A stretch of DNA of 64,000 nucleotides from Calditrichota bacterium (GTDB lineage: Bacteria > Zhuqueibacterota > Zhuqueibacteria > Thermofontimicrobiales > Thermofontimicrobiaceae), in the NCBI GenBank assembly GCA_013152715.1, contig JAADFU010000094.1:76657-140656 (forward strand), written 5' to 3'. Both the position numbers and the translations under genes were made by a program. Shown one piece after another: positions 56,384 to 64,000 of the stretch. The notes beneath the pieces were generated by a model. That model saw only the letters and a program-made list of their open reading frames with translations, had not been told where the DNA came from and ran no database searches. The first letter of the stretch is position 1. Each line of letters opens with the position of its first letter.

Positions 56384-57610
56384 ATGGCAAAATTAGCGAT
56401 TAATGGCGGTGATCCGCTACGGAAAAAACCCTTTCCGAAATGGCCTGTGAGAGATGAGAATGAGATCAAGAACTTGAGAGAAGTAGTTGAGAGTGGAAAG
56501 TGGGGAGCTTTGCACGGCGACAAAGTCAAAACTTTCAGCGAAAAATATGCCGCATTTCATAATGCCAAGCACGGAATTTGCGTCAACAGCGGCACCACGG
56601 CGCTGAAAATTGCGTTGTCTGCAGTCGGAATTGGTCAGGGCGATGAAGTTATTTTACCGGCGTACACTTTTATTGCCACGGCGACAGCAATTCTGGACGC
56701 TGGCGCGATTCCCGTTTTTGTCGATATTGATCCCGACACTTACAACATCGACGTGGATAAAATTGAAGAGGCGATCACTGATCGGACGCGTGGCATTATG
56801 CCGGTGCATTTCGGCGGACGCGCCTGCGACATGGACAAAATTAATGCCATCGCCAAAAAACATGATCTGCGGGTGGTTGAAGACGCCGCGCAAGCCTGGG
56901 GTTCGGAGTGGAATGGCAAAAGAGTCGGCGCTTTGGGCGACGCCGGCGGTTTTAGTTTTCAATCTTCCAAAAACATCACGGCTGGCGAGGGTGGGATTAT
57001 CCTCACTAACGACGATGAAATTGCCATGTTCGCTAAGTCGTACATGAATTGCGGCCGGCTGGAAAATGGCATTTGGTACGAGCATTACTACCTGGGCGGA
57101 AATTTTCGCATGACTGAGTTCCAGGGCGCGGTGCTGCTGGCTCAATTCGATCGTTACTGGGAAATGAAGCAGAAACGCGAACAGAACGCCAAATATTTGC
57201 TGGAGAAAATGGCGCAAATCAAAGGAGTCGAAACGCTGGCAGAGGATTCGAGAATAACCAGCAATTCCTATCACCTGTTCATCTTTCGTTACAAAAAAGA
57301 ATATTTCGGCGATGTGCCCAAATCAAAATTCATCGATGCCATGCGCAAAGAAGGATTTATCATCAGCGCTGGCTACTCGATTCCTCTTTACACGCAACCT
57401 TTAATGAAAAATCAGGCATTCGGTCCCCGCGGCAAAAGAGTAGATGTCGGAGTCGATTACACTCAATACAAATTGCCGGAAACTGAAAAAGCTTGTTACG
57501 AAGAGGCTCTCTGGCTGCCGCAATATGTACTGTTCGGTGAAAAAGAGGACATGGATGATATCCTCGACGGCATTTTGAAAATCAAAGAAAATATCGATGA
57601 ACTCAAATAG
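56384..57610 (+). CDS. DegT/DnrJ/EryC1/StrS-family PLP-dependent aminotransferase
   Basis: NSGTTALKIAL, PxHFGG, SFQSSKNITAGEGG (PLP-lysine) motifs; 408 aa. Confidence 0.85.
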   Translation: MAKLAINGGDPLRKKPFPKWPVRDENEIKNLREVVESGKWGALHGDKVKTFSEKYAAFHNAKHGICVNSGTTALKIALSAVGIGQGDEVILPAYTFIATATAILDAGAIPVFVDIDPDTYNIDVDKIEEAITDRTRGIMPVHFGGRACDMDKINAIAKKHDLRVVEDAAQAWGSEWNGKRVGALGDAGGFSFQSSKNITAGEGGIILTNDDEIAMFAKSYMNCGRLENGIWYEHYYLGGNFRMTEFQGAVLLAQFDRYWEMKQKREQNAKYLLEKMAQIKGVETLAEDSRITSNSYHLFIFRYKKEYFGDVPKSKFIDAMRKEGFIISAGYSIPLYTQPLMKNQAFGPRGKRVDVGVDYTQYKLPETEKACYEEALWLPQYVLFGEKEDMDDILDGILKIKENIDELK

Positions 57611-57646
57611 CGATTCACATTTTTTTCCATTTTTTGAAAAAATATC

Positions 57647-57675
57647 TTGACAACTGTCTTTGAATTGTTTATATT
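57647..57675 (+). promoter_or_regulatory. promoter of the aro/tyr operon leader (TTGACA-17-TATATT)
   Basis: TTGACA 57647-57652, 17-nt spacer, TATATT 57670-57675. Confidence 0.5.
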
Positions 57676-57723
57676 AAACAAAAATATTCAGCAATCAGGT
57701 AACTGACAAATCAGGAAATTTTG

Positions 57724-57828
57724 ATGAAACAATTTATTCCCACAACTGTCTTTGGCGTTTATTTTAGCTTTTATTATTATTTTTATTATTTCCGTAAAGA
57801 TAGTGGGTGGGAATCGTTTGTGCATTGA
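57724..57828 (+). CDS. aromatic-amino-acid attenuator leader peptide (34 aa, Tyr/Phe codon run)
   Basis: AGGAAA RBS; MKQFIPTTVFGVYFSFYYYFYYFRKDSGWESFVH* carries 7 Tyr, 7 Phe and 1 Trp, with 10 aromatics within 11 consecutive codons; verified codon by codon. Confidence 0.7.
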   Translation: MKQFIPTTVFGVYFSFYYYFYYFRKDSGWESFVH

Positions 57829-57850
57829 ACAATCAGAATTTTTAAATCAA

Positions 57851-57888
57851 ACCCGCTATCAAAACAAGGTAGCGGGTTTTTTGTTTTT
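57851..57888 (+). terminator. attenuator terminator immediately upstream of the chorismate mutase RBS
   Basis: acccgcta / tagcgggt 8-bp GC-rich stem, 11-nt loop, then tttttgttttt, abutting AGGAGG and the GTG at 57900. The upstream segment gatagtgggt (57799-57808) can alternatively pair with acccgctatc (57851-57860) as an antiterminator. Confidence 0.75.
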
Positions 57889-57899
57889 AGGAGGTTCAC

Positions 57900-58157
57900 G
57901 TGAGGGAATTGGAGAATTTGCGCGCCCGCATTGACAAGATTGACGGGCAGATTGTTTCTTTGTTGAATCAAAGAGCAGAAATAGCAAAACGCCTTGGCAA
58001 AATGAAAAAATTGAGCGGAAAAGAGATCTTCGACGCGAGCAGAGAAAAGATCGTTTTTGACAGGATTAAGTTGTTGAATGAAGGTCCGCTCAGTGAAAAA
58101 TCTCTGGAAAAAATTTATCAGACAATTATCCGGCAATGTCGTGAAATTCAAAAATAA
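57900..58157 (+). CDS. chorismate mutase (AroQ class, CM_2)
   Basis: 85-aa all-helical protein with RARIDKIDGQIVSLLNQRAEIAKRLGKMK matching the AroQ active-site region; GTG start after AGGAGG. Confidence 0.85.
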   Translation: MRELENLRARIDKIDGQIVSLLNQRAEIAKRLGKMKKLSGKEIFDASREKIVFDRIKLLNEGPLSEKSLEKIYQTIIRQCREIQK

Positions 58158-58172
58158 AACAGGGAGACAGAA

Positions 58173-59189
58173 ATGGTGGTAATCATGGAAGATCAGGCGA
58201 CCGAAGAAGAAATTCTCGTTGTAGAGACCAAGATTAAATCTCTGGGCTACGACGTGCACCGATCCGATGGCGCTGAGCGGACAGTCATCGGAGCTGTTGG
58301 CGAACGAAGAGATATTGACCGCAGGAATCTGGAGCTTTTGGCTGGAGTTCGAGAAGTCATTTCCATTACAAAATCTTACAAATTGGCCAGTCGAGAGTTC
58401 AAGCAAGAAGACACCATCGTCCCGTGTTGCGGCGCGCAAATTGGCGGCAACAACGTCGTTATGATGGCAGGGCCGTGCGCCGTGGAAAGCAGAGAGCAAA
58501 TTTCAGAGATTGCAGAGATTTTGCATGGCAGCGACGTGAAAGTGTTGCGCGGCGGCGCTTTTAAACCGCGGACTTCGCCCTACTCGTTTCAAGGTCTGGG
58601 AGAAGACGGACTAAAATTCCTTCGCGAAGCTGGCGATAAGTTTGGCATGGGGGTAATTTCCGAAGTTCTCGACGTCAGCCAAATCGAGATGATGGAAAAT
58701 TATGTGGATATTTTTCAGGTCGGTGCGAGAAATATGCAGAATTTTTGGTTGCTGAAACAATTGGGAAAAACGAAAAAGCCGGTACTTCTCAAACGCGGCA
58801 TGTCGGCGACGGTTGAGGAATTGCTCATGGCTGCGGAATACATTATGTCTAGCGGAAATTACAAAGTGATTCTTTGCGAGCGCGGAATTCGCACGTTTGA
58901 AAACTCCACGCGGAATACGCTGGATTTGTCCGCTATCCCGGTGATTCAAAAATTGAGCCATCTGCCTATTATTGTTGATCCGAGTCACGGAACCGGCCGT
59001 CGCGATAAAGTTGCTCCCATGGCGCGGGCTGCCGTGGCTGCCGGCGCGCAGGGATTGATTATCGAAGTGCACAATCACCCGGAAAATGCGTTGTCCGACG
59101 GCGCGCAGTCATTGTATCCCGAGCAGTTCGAAAAATTAATGGGAGAAATTAAAACCATCGCTTCTGCGGTTCATCGAAAAGTAGTGTAG
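58173..59189 (+). CDS. aroF: 3-deoxy-7-phosphoheptulonate (DAHP) synthase, type I-beta with N-terminal regulatory domain
   Basis: N-terminal ~70-aa ferredoxin-like extension, then KDO8PS/DAHPS I-beta barrel (MAGPCAVES, KPRTSP, GARNMQN, DPSH). Confidence 0.9.
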   Translation: MVVIMEDQATEEEILVVETKIKSLGYDVHRSDGAERTVIGAVGERRDIDRRNLELLAGVREVISITKSYKLASREFKQEDTIVPCCGAQIGGNNVVMMAGPCAVESREQISEIAEILHGSDVKVLRGGAFKPRTSPYSFQGLGEDGLKFLREAGDKFGMGVISEVLDVSQIEMMENYVDIFQVGARNMQNFWLLKQLGKTKKPVLLKRGMSATVEELLMAAEYIMSSGNYKVILCERGIRTFENSTRNTLDLSAIPVIQKLSHLPIIVDPSHGTGRRDKVAPMARAAVAAGAQGLIIEVHNHPENALSDGAQSLYPEQFEKLMGEIKTIASAVHRKVV

Positions 59190-59198
59190 GAAAAAAAC

Positions 59199-60293
59199 AT
59201 GCGATTTTCAACGATATGCGTTATCGGTACGGGACTCATTGGCGGCTCACTTTTGTTGTCGCTGCGTCGGCAAAAAATAGGGGAGAGGCTCATCGCGGTC
59301 GACTTGCCGGAGACGATTCAACGACTTGAAAAAATGGGCATTGTTGATGAGACTTATTCGAACAAGGAGTTAGCTGGTGCGGTGGAAAATGCAGATTTGA
59401 TTTTTGTGGCCACGCAAATAAGCCTCATCGAACAACTTCTGCCGGAAATAGCCCGCCACGCACGGCCTGGCGCTGTCATTTCTGATGTTGGCAGCAGCAA
59501 ACGTCGCATTGTGGAAATAGCTGCACAGGTGTTCTCTTCGCAGCAATATTTTGTCGGAGGACATCCCATGGCTGGCTCCGAAAAGAGCGGGTTTGACGCG
59601 GCGGACCCGTTTTTGTTTGAAAATTGTTTTTACATTTTAACGCCGCAGCCAAAAACGCCAAATGATATTATTGAAAATCTGGCAGATCTATTGGCTGAAA
59701 TCGGCGCTAAAATTTTGGTGCTCGATTCCGCAACGCACGATCGCATTGCTGCCGGCGTGAGTCATTTGCCGCAGATGTTAGCTGTCTCTCTCGTTAATTT
59801 CATCAATCGCTGCAACGAACAGCAGCCACATTTTTTGCAATTGGCTGCCGGCGGATTTAGGGACATGACACGCATCGCTTCCAGTCCGTTCGCCATGTGG
59901 GAAGATATTTGCCGCACAAATGACGAACAGATTCTTTCTTTTTTGGATCAATTTATTGATTATCTTTCTGAATTCCGGAATCAATTTGAAATCAATTTTT
60001 TGAAAAAGCAATTCGAGGATGCTGCCAGAATCAGACTTTCCATTCCCAGAGACACAAAAGGTTTTATCAATCCAAATTACGACATCGCCGTAGTTGTGGA
60101 TGACAAACCGGGTGTCATCGCCAGGATGGCAACTGTCCTCGCTGAACATAAAATCAACATTCGCGATATTGAAGTGCTGAAAGTAAGATTGTTGGAGGGC
60201 GGAACCATTCGACTTTCGTTTGAAACAAAACAGGACAGAGAGGATGCGATGAAATTGCTGCGCGGAATTGGCTTTGAGTGCAGAAAGAGGTGA
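59199..60293 (+). CDS. tyrA: prephenate dehydrogenase with C-terminal ACT domain
   Basis: Rossmann VIGTGLIGGS, HPMAGSE catalytic His region, C-terminal ACT (IAVVVDDKPGVIARM). Confidence 0.85.
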   Translation: MRFSTICVIGTGLIGGSLLLSLRRQKIGERLIAVDLPETIQRLEKMGIVDETYSNKELAGAVENADLIFVATQISLIEQLLPEIARHARPGAVISDVGSSKRRIVEIAAQVFSSQQYFVGGHPMAGSEKSGFDAADPFLFENCFYILTPQPKTPNDIIENLADLLAEIGAKILVLDSATHDRIAAGVSHLPQMLAVSLVNFINRCNEQQPHFLQLAAGGFRDMTRIASSPFAMWEDICRTNDEQILSFLDQFIDYLSEFRNQFEINFLKKQFEDAARIRLSIPRDTKGFINPNYDIAVVVDDKPGVIARMATVLAEHKINIRDIEVLKVRLLEGGTIRLSFETKQDREDAMKLLRGIGFECRKR

Positions 60294-60295
60294 TA

Positions 60296-61576
60296 ATGAA
60301 AAAAGTTATCGTGCCGGTGAGAAAGTTGGCAGGCGAAATTGAACTTCCCGGCGACAAGTCGATTTCCCATCGGGCGTTGATGCTGACGAGTCTCGCTGAT
60401 GGGGAAAGCGAAATTTACAATTTGTCCGCTTGTCAGGATGTAAAAAGCACGGCGCAATGTTTGCGGGAATTAGGCATCAAAATTGAAATGGCAAATAACC
60501 GCTGCGTTGTTCAAGGGAAAGGATTGGTTGGACTAAATCAGCCGGACAAAGTGCTCGATGCCGGAAACTCAGGAACCACAATGCGGCTTTTGTCCGGGAT
60601 TTTAGCGGGGCAGGAATTTCCGAGCTGCATTACCGGCGATGAATCGTTGCGAAGACGACCGATGAGGCGCATCATTGAACCGCTGCGAGCAATGGGTGCT
60701 GTGATTTCTGGCAGGAATGATAATTTTGCGCCGCTGTGCATTGAAAAAGGCGCGTTGAAAGGAATTGAGCACAAGCTGAAAATTGCCAGTGCGCAGGTGA
60801 AGTCGAGCATTTTGTTGGCGGGCCTGTTTGCCGAGGGCGAGACAATTGTGGATGAGCCTGCCCTCTCCCGGGATCACACGGAACGGATGCTGGATTTTTT
60901 AGGCGCAGAAATTGTTGCTAAAAAACGCAGGGTTGTTGTTAAATCTTTTCCGCGATTGAGGGCGAAAAAAATTATCGTGCCTGGCGATATTTCGTCCGCT
61001 GCTTTTTTTCTGGCAGCCGCGGCGATTGTCCCTGATTCCGAAATTCGCCTCAAAAATGTGGGCATGAATCCGTCTCGTACCGGCATTCTGGATGTGCTGA
61101 AAATGATGGGCAAAAACGTGCGCATTGAGAACTTCAAAATTACAAATAACGAGGAAATGGCAGATTTGATCATGACTTCGCACAAGTTAAAAGGCGTCGA
61201 AATTGGCGGCGCGCTGATTCCGCGAGTCATTGACGAAATTCCGATTATCGCGATTTTAGCGACTCAGGCAGAAGGAGAAACTGTCATTCGCGATGCCGTG
61301 GAATTGCGGGTGAAAGAGACCGACCGCATCCGTTCTGTGGTGGAAAATCTGAAAAAGATGGGCGCTCAAGTTCAGGAATTGCCTGATGGTTTGGTTATTC
61401 AGGGAAGTCAGAAGTTGAAGGGCACAAAAATTGACAGCTTTGGCGATCATCGTATTGCCATGTCCTTTGCCGTTGCCGGGCTGGTAGCCGAAGGGGAAAC
61501 GGAAATTTTAGGAGCTGAGTGCGCGGATATTTCTCATCCGAGTTTTTTCGTACAATTGGAGAAGATTTATGCCTGA
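60296..61576 (+). CDS. aroA: 3-phosphoshikimate 1-carboxyvinyltransferase (EPSP synthase)
   Basis: LPGDKSISHRALML, NSGTTMRLL, DHRIAMSFAVAG motifs; ATG at 60296 after AGAAAGAGG (the track ORF begins at 60278). Confidence 0.95.
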   Translation: MKKVIVPVRKLAGEIELPGDKSISHRALMLTSLADGESEIYNLSACQDVKSTAQCLRELGIKIEMANNRCVVQGKGLVGLNQPDKVLDAGNSGTTMRLLSGILAGQEFPSCITGDESLRRRPMRRIIEPLRAMGAVISGRNDNFAPLCIEKGALKGIEHKLKIASAQVKSSILLAGLFAEGETIVDEPALSRDHTERMLDFLGAEIVAKKRRVVVKSFPRLRAKKIIVPGDISSAAFFLAAAAIVPDSEIRLKNVGMNPSRTGILDVLKMMGKNVRIENFKITNNEEMADLIMTSHKLKGVEIGGALIPRVIDEIPIIAILATQAEGETVIRDAVELRVKETDRIRSVVENLKKMGAQVQELPDGLVIQGSQKLKGTKIDSFGDHRIAMSFAVAGLVAEGETEILGAECADISHPSFFVQLEKIYA

Positions 61577-62447
61577 TGCAAAAACAGGAATGCTCGGCGT
61601 CATTGGCGATCCCATCGAGCATAGTTTGTCGCCGATCATGCACAATTTCATTTTTCAGAAACTTGGGCTAAATTTTTGCTACCATGCCTTTCGCGTAATT
61701 GACCGGGATTTGCCTCACGCCATTGATGGGTTTCGCGCGTTGAATTTTCGCGGAATAAATGTTACGCTGCCGCACAAGCAAAATATCATTCAATATCTCG
61801 ATGAGGTTCACGATGACGCAGCGCAGTTGGCGGCGGTAAATACGGTACTTTTCTCGCACGGAAAGGCTTTGGGTTTCAATACGGACGTGAAAGGATTCAT
61901 GAACGCAGTCATTAATTTTGGCGTAAATTTGGAGGGGGAGAAAGCTATTTTGTTAGGCGCTGGTGGATCAGCGAGGGCAGTGGCGTTAGGATTGTTGCGT
62001 CTCGGGTGCAAAGAAATTGCTATTTACAATCGCTCTTTGCCCAACGCGCAAATAATGGCAGCTTTTTTAGTAAAAAAAACTGGCATCAGTGTTTTTTTTG
62101 CTCACGATTTGAAAGATCGTCAGCTTTACCGCGATGTCGAGAATGCAGCCATTTTGGTCAACGCAACAAATGTGGGCATGGCTCCGGACATTGAGAAAAG
62201 TCCATTGCCCTATGATTTGAAATTGAATTCAAAAATGTTCGTTTTTGATCTGATTTACAATCCGGCGGAGACCGCCTTGCTGAGTTTTGCCCGAAAACAG
62301 GGCGTGCAGATACAAAATGGCCTTGAAATGTTAATTTTTCAAGGCATTGCTTCGCTGGAGATATGGTTAGGCAAAGAAATTGACGTCTCCAATTTTTTCA
62401 ACAACTTAAAAAATAAAATTATCGAGGCATTAGAAGAAAATGGCTAA
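61569..62447 (+). CDS. aroE: shikimate dehydrogenase
   Basis: GVIGDPIEHSLSP, NVTLPHK, GAGGSARAV motifs. Confidence 0.9.
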   Translation: MPDAKTGMLGVIGDPIEHSLSPIMHNFIFQKLGLNFCYHAFRVIDRDLPHAIDGFRALNFRGINVTLPHKQNIIQYLDEVHDDAAQLAAVNTVLFSHGKALGFNTDVKGFMNAVINFGVNLEGEKAILLGAGGSARAVALGLLRLGCKEIAIYNRSLPNAQIMAAFLVKKTGISVFFAHDLKDRQLYRDVENAAILVNATNVGMAPDIEKSPLPYDLKLNSKMFVFDLIYNPAETALLSFARKQGVQIQNGLEMLIFQGIASLEIWLGKEIDVSNFFNNLKNKIIEALEENG

Positions 62448-63639
62448 AATCAGATATTTGACTGCCGGTGAATCGCATGGACCAGCCCTGGTGGGAATTA
62501 TAGAGGGGTTACCCGCTGGTCTGGAAATTGATATTGGCGTGGTAAATCTTCAGCTCTCCCGACGTCAGCAAGGTTACGGTAGAGGCGGTCGCATGAAAAT
62601 TGAGAAAGACGAGGCAGTTATTTTGTCTGGCGTGCGGCATGGAAAGACTCTCGGTAGCCCGGTGGCGGTGATGATTAAAAATCGAGATTGGGAAAACTGG
62701 CGGGAAAGTATGAGTGTCGAAAAATTGGATGATTTGAGCAGTGTAACAAAAGTCACCATTCCCAGACCTGGACATGCTGATTTACCCGGGGCGGGAAAAT
62801 ACGGACATGAAGATTTACGTAACGTCTTGGAACGCGCCAGTGCCAGAGAAACTGCCATTCGGGTGGCAATAGGCGCAATTGCGGGACAGTTGCTGCGACA
62901 ATTTGGGATTCAAATTGTCAGCCACGTAAAGCGCATTGGAGACGTGCTGAGTTCTTTTTCGCTCATTTCGTGGACTTCCGCAGAAAAAAATCAGTGGCAA
63001 GGACGTTTGCAAGACCTTTACGCTCGTGTGGAACAATCACCGGTTCGCTGCTTCTCAAAAGAGGTCGGGGAGAAGATGTGCCAAGAAATTGATCTGGCAA
63101 AAGAAAAAGGGGAGTCTCTGGGGGGTGAAATCGAAATCGGCACTTTTTTTCTGCCGCCCGGGCTGGGCAGCCATGTGCATTGGGATAGAAAATTAGACGG
63201 GAAAATTGCCGGCGCCATGATGAGCATTCCGGCAATAAAATGTGTGGAAATCGGAATAGGAAAACTCGCGGGAGGAACATGGGGGTCTGATGTTCATGAT
63301 GAAATTTTCACGGATGAAAACGGAAATATTTTTCGACGAACGAATCGCGCCGGCGGACTGGAAGGGGGAATGACCAACGGCGAGCCGATTGTCGTCAAGT
63401 GTACAATGAAACCGATTCCCACGCTGATGAGACCGCTGCGTTCCGTTGATCTGGAAACAAAGCAAGCAGTTAGTGCCCACAAGGAACGTTCGGACGTATG
63501 CGCCGTCCCAGCAGCGGCAGTAGTGGCGGAATCCGTTTTGGCGCTCGTTTTGGCAGATGAATTTTGCGAAAAATTTGGAGGAGATTCGATTGAGGAAACG
63601 AGGCGGAATTTTGAGAATTACTTGGAAAAACTACCTTGA
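62440..63639 (+). CDS. aroC: chorismate synthase
   Basis: GESHGPALVGIIEG, RPGHAD, GGRSSARETA-like signature regions; 399 aa. Confidence 0.95.
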   Translation: MAKIRYLTAGESHGPALVGIIEGLPAGLEIDIGVVNLQLSRRQQGYGRGGRMKIEKDEAVILSGVRHGKTLGSPVAVMIKNRDWENWRESMSVEKLDDLSSVTKVTIPRPGHADLPGAGKYGHEDLRNVLERASARETAIRVAIGAIAGQLLRQFGIQIVSHVKRIGDVLSSFSLISWTSAEKNQWQGRLQDLYARVEQSPVRCFSKEVGEKMCQEIDLAKEKGESLGGEIEIGTFFLPPGLGSHVHWDRKLDGKIAGAMMSIPAIKCVEIGIGKLAGGTWGSDVHDEIFTDENGNIFRRTNRAGGLEGGMTNGEPIVVKCTMKPIPTLMRPLRSVDLETKQAVSAHKERSDVCAVPAAAVVAESVLALVLADEFCEKFGGDSIEETRRNFENYLEKLP

Positions 63640-63698
63640 AGTCGCATCATCCTTCCAAAGCTTTGAAAGAATTAAACTTAACATATTGTTAAAAGCAA

Positions 63699-64000
63699 AT
63701 GATTAAACATCCTCAAAAAAATATTTACCTCATCGGCTTCATGGGCTCGGGCAAAAGCACTGTGGGGCCTTTACTGGCGAAAAAAATGAACCGCGCCTTT
63801 TTTGACACGGATGAATGGATCATCAACGAAACCGGCAAAACCATTCCGGAAATTTTCGCTGAAGACGGCGAACAATTTTTTCGCGAAAAAGAGCGGGAAG
63901 CGATTCAAATTGTCTGCAAGTTCAAAAATATGCTGGTGTCTGTCGGCGGGGGCGCTGTAGTGGATTCGAGCAACTGGCTGACTCTCAAAAAATCCGGTCT
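63699..64000 (+). CDS. aroK: shikimate kinase (3'-truncated by the window end)
   Basis: ATG at 63699; NIYLIGFMGSGKSTVG P-loop, ...FF.DTD...E motif; runs off the window. Confidence 0.85.
   Translation, partial: MIKHPQKNIYLIGFMGSGKSTVGPLLAKKMNRAFFDTDEWIINETGKTIPEIFAEDGEQFFREKEREAIQIVCKFKNMLVSVGGGAVVDSSNWLTLKKSG

Follow-up and report, generated by a model that had tools for sequence, protein, structure and literature searches.

Does the DNA in front of the aromatic amino acid operon of a Calditrichota bacterium encode a ribosome-mediated transcription attenuator, and to which amino acid would it respond? In the 64,000-nucleotide (nt) stretch of contig JAADFU010000094.1 analyzed herein (referred to as the window; positions count from its first letter), a 289-nt spacer separates the stop codon of a DegT/DnrJ-family aminotransferase gene (57610) from the GTG start codon of a chorismate mutase (CM) gene (57900), the first gene of an operon for aromatic amino acid biosynthesis. 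A preliminary description of this DNA had proposed that the spacer carries an attenuator with a leader peptide rich in Tyr and Phe. The architecture of the spacer, a model of the ribosome on the nascent transcript, and the conservation in relatives, all of which are computational tests, agreed with this proposal, and the spacer very probably encodes a working ribosome-mediated attenuator that responds to the supply of Tyr and/or Phe.

Architecture of the leader region

As summarized in Table 1, the parts expected of such an attenuator were found in the order, and almost exactly at the positions, given in the preliminary description. The claimed promoter was present and represented the top-scoring promoter-like site in a scan of positions 57000-58600, with the -35 hexamer TTGACA at 57647-57652, a 17-nt spacer, and the -10 hexamer TATATT at 57670-57675. 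The claimed ribosome-binding site (RBS) and 34-codon open reading frame (ORF) were likewise identified, except that the start codon implied at around 57725 was actually the ATG at 57724; the ORF ends with TGA at 57826-57828. The ten aromatic residues in 11 consecutive codons were all confirmed, comprising six Tyr and four Phe residues encoded by six TAT, three TTT, and one TTC codons and interrupted by a single AGC, and two further Phe codons precede this run. The run stops 6 nt 5′ of segment 2, and the stop codon begins 13 nt 3′ of the same segment. The leader ORF is separated from the first gene by an intrinsic terminator with a 12-bp stem (57849-57879) and a T-tract ending at 57888, and, in good agreement with the description of a hairpin abutting the RBS of the first structural gene, AGGAGG follows directly from 57889, 5 nt before the CM start codon. 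Since this RBS lies outside the terminator stem, the control would be exerted at the level of transcription rather than by masking of the RBS.

Table 1. Elements of the putative attenuator and of the operon behind it, in positions of the window.
Feature	Position	Strand	Remarks
Sigma-70-type promoter, TTGACA-17-TATATT	57647-57675	+	putative; 11/12 consensus positions
Shine-Dalgarno sequence AGGA of the leader ORF	57713-57716	+	7 nt 5′ of ATG 57724; kept in L001 and L161
Leader peptide ORF, 34 codons and TGA, MKQFIPTTVFGVYFSFYYYFYYFRKDSGWESFVH	57724-57828	+	sequence and conserved frame
Segment 1, anti-antiterminator 5′ arm, codons 4-12	57735-57757	+	pairs with 57794-57815
Regulatory codon run YFSFYYYFYYF, codons 13-23	57760-57792	+	occurs once in the six reading frames of the window
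Segment 2, antiterminator 5′ arm, core gatagtgggt (57799-57808)	57798-57813	+	duplex with 57851-57860
Segment 3, common to antiterminator and terminator, AAACCCGCTATC	57849-57860	+	
Segment 4, terminator 3′ arm, GGTAGCGGGTTT	57868-57879	+	12-bp stem with segment 3
T-tract of the intrinsic terminator, TTTTTTGTTTTT	57877-57888	+	
RBS AGGAGG (57889-57894) and CM gene (GTG 57900), first regulated gene	57889-58157	+	Pfam CM_2, E = 2.8e-23
Rest of the operon: DAHP synthase, TyrA (with ACT), AroA, AroE, AroC, start of AroK	58173-64000	+	Pfam

The density of aromatic codons in the run was exceptional for this DNA. Ten aromatic residues in 11 codons represented the maximum in the six-frame translation of the whole window and occurred only once, the next best being a single stretch with eight, and it was not attained in any of 2000 dinucleotide-preserving shuffles of the spacer or of its T/A-rich core. 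The leader ORF is enriched for amino acids of the pathway that it precedes, with ten of the 11 run codons specifying Tyr or Phe and the operon specifying CM, DAHP synthase (DAHPS), TyrA, and shikimate enzymes. A scan of the window for other short ORFs having amino acid runs followed by a terminator returned nothing convincing or comparable.

RNA folds and their dependence on the ribosome position

The 221-nt leader was predicted to fold with a free energy of -55.5 kcal/mol (z = -4.5). The minimum free energy fold consisted of a long 1:2 hairpin, in which 57735-57757 pairs with 57794-57815, and the 3:4 terminator, and the aromatic codons occupied the 36-nt loop of the former. The 1:2 duplex was calculated at -23.7 kcal/mol (z = -4.7 against shuffles), and the competing 2:3 duplex at -18.4 kcal/mol (z = -5.8 against shuffled leaders). 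The core of the latter is formed by gatagtgggt (57799-57808) and ACCCGCTATC (57851-57860), and the 10-bp complementarity to the left arm of the terminator noted previously holds when one G·U pair is counted, with two further pairs flanking it. As the 12-bp stem of the 3:4 terminator was calculated at -18.3 kcal/mol, the antiterminator is predicted to be as strong as the terminator. All three helices (1:2, 2:3, and 3:4) expected from the claimed mutually exclusive antiterminator and terminator folds were thus found.

The response of these folds to translation was assessed with a ribosome-mask model, in which the transcript was folded before segment 4 exists, pairing was allowed only 3′ of the ribosome, and the A-site was stepped codon by codon; the model returns the probability of segment 3 being sequestered by that point. 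In this model, the leader of the window gave 0.21 for the free RNA, in which the 1:2 hairpin wins, around 0.8 with the ribosome at codons 4-20, and 0.00 with the ribosome at the stop codon. The profile fell through 0.65, 0.51, 0.44, and 0.29 over codons 21-24 and did not exceed 0.05 from codon 28 onward. The same script was applied to the annotated leaders of Escherichia coli taken from RefSeq, and gave 0.05, 0.62, and 0.04 for the free RNA, the regulatory codons, and the stop codon of trpL (L164), and 0.20, 0.83, and 0.05 for those of pheL (L165). In silico, therefore, the antiterminator was favored with the ribosome at the regulatory codons, and the terminator with the ribosome at the stop codon or absent, as in trpL and pheL. 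Two other folding schemes were discarded. Folding the entire leader to equilibrium around a masked ribosome was uninformative, as the terminator was favored in every state, with the same outcome for the E. coli controls, and masked folding with pairs allowed to span the ribosome closed the 1:2 hairpin around a ribosome seated in a 33-nt loop, which is sterically implausible.

Conservation in relatives

Related loci were gathered by a DAHPS scan of genome contigs and a TyrA-profile scan of metagenomes. In the former, the protein proved to be too conserved and Acidobacteria dominated the list, the useful loci being L001 and L026; a protein search with CM returned only four matches. The nearest genome in GTDB was that of candidate division KSB1 bacterium 4484_87 (L001), the DAHPS of which is 88% identical. 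Its leader, MKQLTPTTILGVYFSFYFYFYYFRKDSGWEASML, is accompanied by the same promoter hexamers, segment 2, and terminator as in the window, and the 5′ untranslated region, the tail of the peptide, and the loop of the hairpin have diverged. A short ENA contig (L161; CM 88% identical) encodes the leader MKQFIPTTVFGVYFSFYYYFYYFRKDSGWESSVH. Both promoter hexamers were identical in L001 and L161 despite the diverged spacer and flanks, and TTGAC(A/T)...TATATT-like sites were also located 5′ of the leaders in L026, L081, L083, and L085.

More distant CM-DAHPS-TyrA lineages (with 48-51% identity of TyrA for those obtained by the TyrA scan) were represented by L026 with the leader MNFIASYIYFSFYFYFFALRSSGRILLT, L081 with MNSFTVTFFDYFYFGFFGARSSGAIAFS, L083 with MYSIASYIYFSFYYFYYYFYSKRSSGMIYLI, L085 with MIYYFYNYFYLAVPGSGRK, L089 with MTKHNLSFLYNFYYCQIQRSGRNQ, and L091 (= L099) with MIDLKAKIARYYESYFYFASFGSGGMD. 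Each of these six loci possesses a short ORF with an aromatic run and a terminator within approximately 25-30 nt of it, directly 5′ of CM, and segment 2 of each matches its own terminator. Across the relatives, Y-to-F replacements together with synonymous TAT/TAC and TTT/TTC changes keep the run aromatic, and the synonymous TAC and TTC codons in the aromatic frame argue for translation in that frame. The placement of the run with respect to segment 2 was also conserved, as was that of the stop codon. The preliminary description had named the loss of the aromatic upstream ORF (uORF) in relatives as evidence that would speak against an attenuator, and the opposite was seen, the uORF being kept in L161, L001, L026, L081, L083, L085, L089, and L091. 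Among loci totaling 1.1 Mb, every short ORF having six or more aromatic residues in eight codons and a terminator behind it lay upstream of an aro operon, and none was found on the reverse strand. Aromatic leader candidates in L107/L109, L143, and L152 were rejected, since they lie inside coding genes.

The 60-aa ORF that the preliminary description regarded as spurious does exist at 57752-57934, overlapping the leader in another frame, in which the run is read as Ile-rich, and crossing the terminator into the start of the CM gene. It was rejected as a real gene because it is not conserved, being closed early in L001 and not Ile-rich in L026. Gene callers may report this ORF in place of the leader, and gene finders overlook or mis-call the 34-codon ORF.

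Covariation of the helices

The arms of the terminator differ by clade, reading ACCCGCTATC and GGTAGCGGGT in the window and ACCCACTGCTTC and GAGGCAGTGGGT in L026 and L083, and segment 2 shifts along with the terminator (GATAGTGGGT versus GAAGCAGTGG). Covariation was counted on seven distinct sequences in fixed registers, which were anchored on the conserved CCC/GGG motifs and partly fitted by the analyst; fixed-register segments were used because a plain MAFFT alignment placed the left arm of some rows one column out of register. For the antiterminator 2:3, 78.6% of the cells were paired, compared with 30-50% in slid registers, four pairs were changed on both sides, and the covariation score was 0.286 versus 0.171 for shuffled sequences, with the observed score being reached in 2 of 500 shuffles. 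For the terminator 3:4, the corresponding values were 86.9% against 31-57%, six pairs changed on both sides, and a score of 0.361 against 0.214, which none of 500 shuffles reached.

The 1:2 stem of L083, formed by AUUCCAUUGCUUCU with AGAAGCAGUGGAAU, was calculated at -23.8 kcal/mol (z = -7.3), and those of L026 and L081 gave z = -7.2 and -2.6, respectively. The 1:2 sequences of these three loci are unrelated to the 1:2 stem of the window, and segment 1 also tracks segment 2.

Proposed mechanism and alternative explanations

In the mechanism that we infer, together with promoter use, ribosome-polymerase coupling, actual termination, and the effective signal (Tyr or Phe), transcription would start a few bases past the -10 box at around 57682, and a ribosome loaded at the ATG (57724) would trail the polymerase. 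With an ample supply of Tyr-tRNA and Phe-tRNA, the ribosome would cross the run of Tyr and Phe codons toward the stop codon (57826) and cover segment 2 (57798-57813); segment 3 would thereby be free to pair with the emerging segment 4, and the hairpin with its U-tract would terminate transcription before the CM gene. If charged Tyr-tRNA or Phe-tRNA runs short, the ribosome would stall within 57760-57792 and keep segment 1 from segment 2, and the latter, being left open, would form the 2:3 helix (10-bp core, -18 kcal/mol) before segment 4 is made, so that no terminator would form and the polymerase would read through. With no translating ribosome, the 1:2 hairpin (-24 kcal/mol) would form and termination would be the default.

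Several observations weigh against this mechanism. At equilibrium, the terminator was always preferred (P = 0.96 in the window), and because this preference was shared by the window, trpL, and pheL (0.95-0.96), the choice between the folds must be kinetic and co-transcriptional. The proposed blocking of the 1:2 hairpin by a stalled ribosome rests on steric reasoning, and the model with pairing across the ribosome showed no switch. Moreover, the loop of the 1:2 hairpin, and not segment 1, harbors the regulatory codons, and a ribosome halted on one of the final two or three aromatic codons would, in the model, partly cover segment 2. In L085, L089, and L091, no significant 1:2 stem was detected when the duplexes were compared with shuffles; the ribosome-mask profiles of these three loci switch off just past the aromatic run. 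The covariation sample is small, and its seven distinct sequences were compared in chosen registers, so that covariation is supportive rather than conclusive. In addition, the F-Y-F leader of Corynebacterium glutamicum, as relayed in PMC11802643, answers to Phe and not to Tyr, which implies that the specificity is unreadable from the codons alone.

The last point leads to the possibility that the leader is translated and attenuates, but reports the general translation capacity or Phe only, and not Tyr. According to PMC11802643, aroR-aroF of C. glutamicum is unaffected by Tyr availability despite its Tyr codon, and the leader of the window does contain four Phe codons in the run and two earlier ones. 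Set against these are the six Tyr codons of the run, including YYY and YY, the Tyr runs of relatives (YYYYYY in L102, YYY in L104, and YYYFYYY in L163), and the presence of tyrA within the operon in every case, and we regard this possibility as very unlikely.

The preservation of the aromatic frame by synonymous TAT/TAC and TTT/TTC changes, even where the surrounding nucleotides differ, bears on another explanation, in which the switch is real but set by an RNA-binding protein, an uncharged tRNA, or a small ligand, and the aromatic uORF is incidental. A sensor of this kind would not need a conserved run, a fixed placement of the run with respect to segment 2, or a fixed position of the stop codon, and neither an Rfam family at the gathering score in the window nor a T-box motif in the leader of approximately 160 nt was found. 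Although the aro operons of other lineages do use such devices (a T-box scoring 122 bits in L112, and TRAP-like arrays in L111 and L115), this explanation is thus very unlikely for the window. Finally, a chance reading of a T/A-rich, low-complexity spacer as Tyr and Phe (the run being composed of TAT and TTT and giving the Ile-rich 60-aa ORF in the other frame) beside an ordinary terminator of the upstream DegT-family gene is hardly credible and already essentially refuted by the comparative data, considering the failure of all 2000 shuffles to reach ten in 11, the location of the terminator 3′ of a promoter and 240 nt beyond the stop codon of that gene, the conservation of the aromatic frame instead of the Ile frame with the 60-aa ORF closed in L001, and the covariation of segments 1 to 4.

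As for the ribosome-mediated attenuator itself, our guess is that both Tyr and Phe constitute the effective signal, with Tyr being dominant, because the run contains six Tyr codons including YYY and YY and because some relatives have runs of Tyr only.

The regulated operon and other designs at related operons

Behind the CM_2 domain of the first gene, the order of Pfam domains was DAHP synthase (FXD and DAHP_synth_1), prephenate dehydrogenase with ACT, EPSP synthase, shikimate dehydrogenase, and chorismate synthase, and a shikimate-kinase-like (AroK-like) ORF is still open at the end of the window. The genes overlap or are closely spaced. An N-terminal ferredoxin-like FXD domain is present in DAHPS (58173-59186), and a C-terminal ACT domain in the prephenate dehydrogenase (59199-60290). 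FXD and ACT are typical allosteric modules for the binding of amino acids, and given these domains in DAHPS and TyrA, allosteric feedback inhibition probably acts together with attenuation.

Leaders of other designs were observed at related operons. In a metagenome-assembled genome (MAG) of Calditrichia (L163, 255-400), a TTGACA...TATAAT promoter is followed by the leader MKNINLTYSLLYYYFYYYSNKGALI, which contains YYYFYYY, and by an unrelated terminator (AAGGCTCC...GGAGCCTT with a T-run) upstream of DAHPS-AroA-CM-TyrA. DAHPS-TyrA loci lacking CM displayed Tyr-only leaders and a second attenuator-like design. These include MQYCREDGYYYYYYNRFIR with YYYYYY in L102 (343-447; identical to L149, 2798-2902), MNGKRYYYRNSSEP with YYY in L104 (2849-2939; identical to L114), where the DAHPS is named 'Spirochaetes bacterium DG_61', and a leader containing DGHYYVCGLQH in L113 (2583-2701). 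The hairpins of the L102/L104/L113 group are built from three to four copies of the palindrome CTGCAG, and their antiterminator (2:3) statistics were weak (z = -0.7 to -2.2).

Other sensors were also encountered at the same position. In L112 (2626-2894), a DAHPS-TyrA-AroA operon is preceded by a T-box leader (Rfam RF00230, 122 bits), a different sensor for the same job, and L111 (1-110) and L115 (approximately 1880-1930) possess close arrays of TAG/GAG triplets (e.g., GGTAGTTAGGTAGTATGG...GGTAGGACGGTAGG), followed by a hairpin upstream of DAHPS, which resemble the TRAP-binding sites of Bacillus-type aro/trp control. The leader peptides, the T-box, and the TRAP-like arrays at related loci show that terminator-based control at the head of this operon is common and that the sensor is exchangeable. 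In L106 (2749-2877), a 42-codon uORF, MSQATPNIATLTIVNFVSYRVSLRFSLNHANYFAQWWRNHWA, contains WW and ends within a strong hairpin, GCCCAGTGGTGGCGTAACCACTGGGC, having no clear T-tract, upstream of DAHPS. In L003 (2705-4014; Caldithrix sp.) and the metagenome lineages L121, L124, L129, and L154, CM-DAHPS-TyrA directly follows trpA with neither leader nor terminator and is thereby embedded in a larger trp-aro operon; in L003, the block is preceded by trpF-trpB-trpA. There is also no leader where CM-TyrA directly follows another upstream gene, as in L082 and similar loci.

Implications

The proposed attenuator provides a regulatory annotation for an operon from a phylum of which hardly any members have been cultured, and shows that attenuation by a coupled ribosome, as known from textbooks, is at work, or at any rate encoded, far beyond Proteobacteria and Actinobacteria. 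The concept of attenuation itself is left unchanged by the element. On a broader scale, it is about as likely as not that the element belongs to an undescribed set of Tyr-sensing attenuators (tentatively 'tyrL') of aroF-tyrA-type operons in several uncultivated lineages, with at least three origins on unrelated hairpins; the members would be found in Calditrichota/KSB1, in the Calditrichia MAG (YYYFYYY), and in 'Spirochaetes DG_61'-like bacteria (YYYYYY). If so, Tyr would be sensed by attenuation in the same way as Trp, Phe, His, Leu, Thr, and Ile/Val, and such devices would arise convergently outside Proteobacteria and Actinobacteria. The leader of the window represents a clean and conserved case from an uncultured phylum and forms part of possibly the first clear set of Tyr-run leaders. 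The candidate Tyr-responsive leaders are unrepresented in Rfam, Pfam, and NCBIfam and only marginal in the literature searched, and a covariance model built from the relatives would permit their systematic annotation. The part, which is compact (approximately 250 nt), could also serve as a Tyr/Phe-responsive expression switch.

Comparison with known systems

No known family was recognized in the leader. In the window, the Rfam models Phe_leader (RF01859; 18.6 bits, E = 3.1) and Trp_leader (RF00513; 23.5 bits, mainly matching the terminator) remained below their gathering scores of 55 and 41, respectively, and no Rfam match at the gathering score was obtained in the window or in 13 related loci; matches at permissive thresholds (rliG, the trpB motif, and Trp_leader) were dismissed as sub-threshold and terminator-driven. 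The T-box model (RF00230) gave no match in the window, while the same search detected the T-box of L112. Leader-peptide models of NCBIfam and Pfam returned no family at E values up to 10 for the peptide of the window and those of four relatives. In the literature searched, no Tyr-run attenuator was found, nor any description of the Tyr bias or of the Calditrichota/KSB1 lineage for such an attenuator, which is weak evidence given that most papers in subscription journals fall outside its coverage.

The T-box of Firmicutes senses uncharged tRNA, and TRAP is a protein activated by Trp; neither of them needs translation. The element of the window shares with these systems of aro/trp control the competition between terminator and antiterminator in a 5′ leader and the purpose, but, unlike them, has no T-box match and no (G/U)AG repeats.

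The mechanism is classical and not new, and Phe/Tyr leaders of aroF are already known in C. glutamicum and proposed in Acholeplasma. The closest functional precedent is the aroR leader (F-Y-F) of C. glutamicum, which attenuates aroF (Mentz 2013, PMC4046766; PMC11802643); like the leader of the window, it is a peptide with Phe and Tyr codons in front of a DAHPS operon, but it contains only F-Y-F, belongs to another phylum, and was set beside the window by description only. This attenuator responds to Phe and, as Neshat 2014 is cited in PMC11802643, reportedly not to Tyr despite its Tyr codon. The uORFC-13-1 upstream of aroF in Acholeplasma, a Phe uORF with a terminator predicted by comparative genomics (Brewer et al. 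2021, PMC8632094), resembles the element of the window in its promoter, RBS, and Phe codons directly 5′ of an intrinsic terminator and aroF; by description, it differs in having at least one Phe from the U-run, no Tyr run, and a host within Mollicutes. For aroF-tyrA of E. coli, attenuation was only hypothesized, according to the citations of Camakaris 1980 in PMC8632094 and PMC2659441.

Established in gamma-proteobacteria, the pheL-pheA system is also suspected to occur in Bacteroides and Desulfobacterium (PMC3082878). Like pheL-pheA and trpL-trpEDCBA of E. coli, the element of the window has a promoter followed by a short ORF in which codons for the product abound, 1:2/3:4 folds competing with a 2:3 fold, and an intrinsic terminator immediately 5′ of the first structural gene, and it exhibits the same three-state mask profile. 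It shares no sequence homology with either E. coli leader. The classical pheL/trpL logic claimed in the preliminary description thus stands for the four-segment architecture and the mask behavior but not for the codon placement, since the regulatory codons of trpL and pheL lie inside segment 1, whereas those of the window occupy the loop that joins segments 1 and 2. Furthermore, the run of the window mixes Tyr and Phe and is much longer (ten of 11 codons), the leader comprises 34 codons instead of 14-15, the regulated operon consists of CM-DAHPS-tyrA and four shikimate genes instead of pheA or the trp genes, and the host belongs to Calditrichota/KSB1 instead of Proteobacteria.

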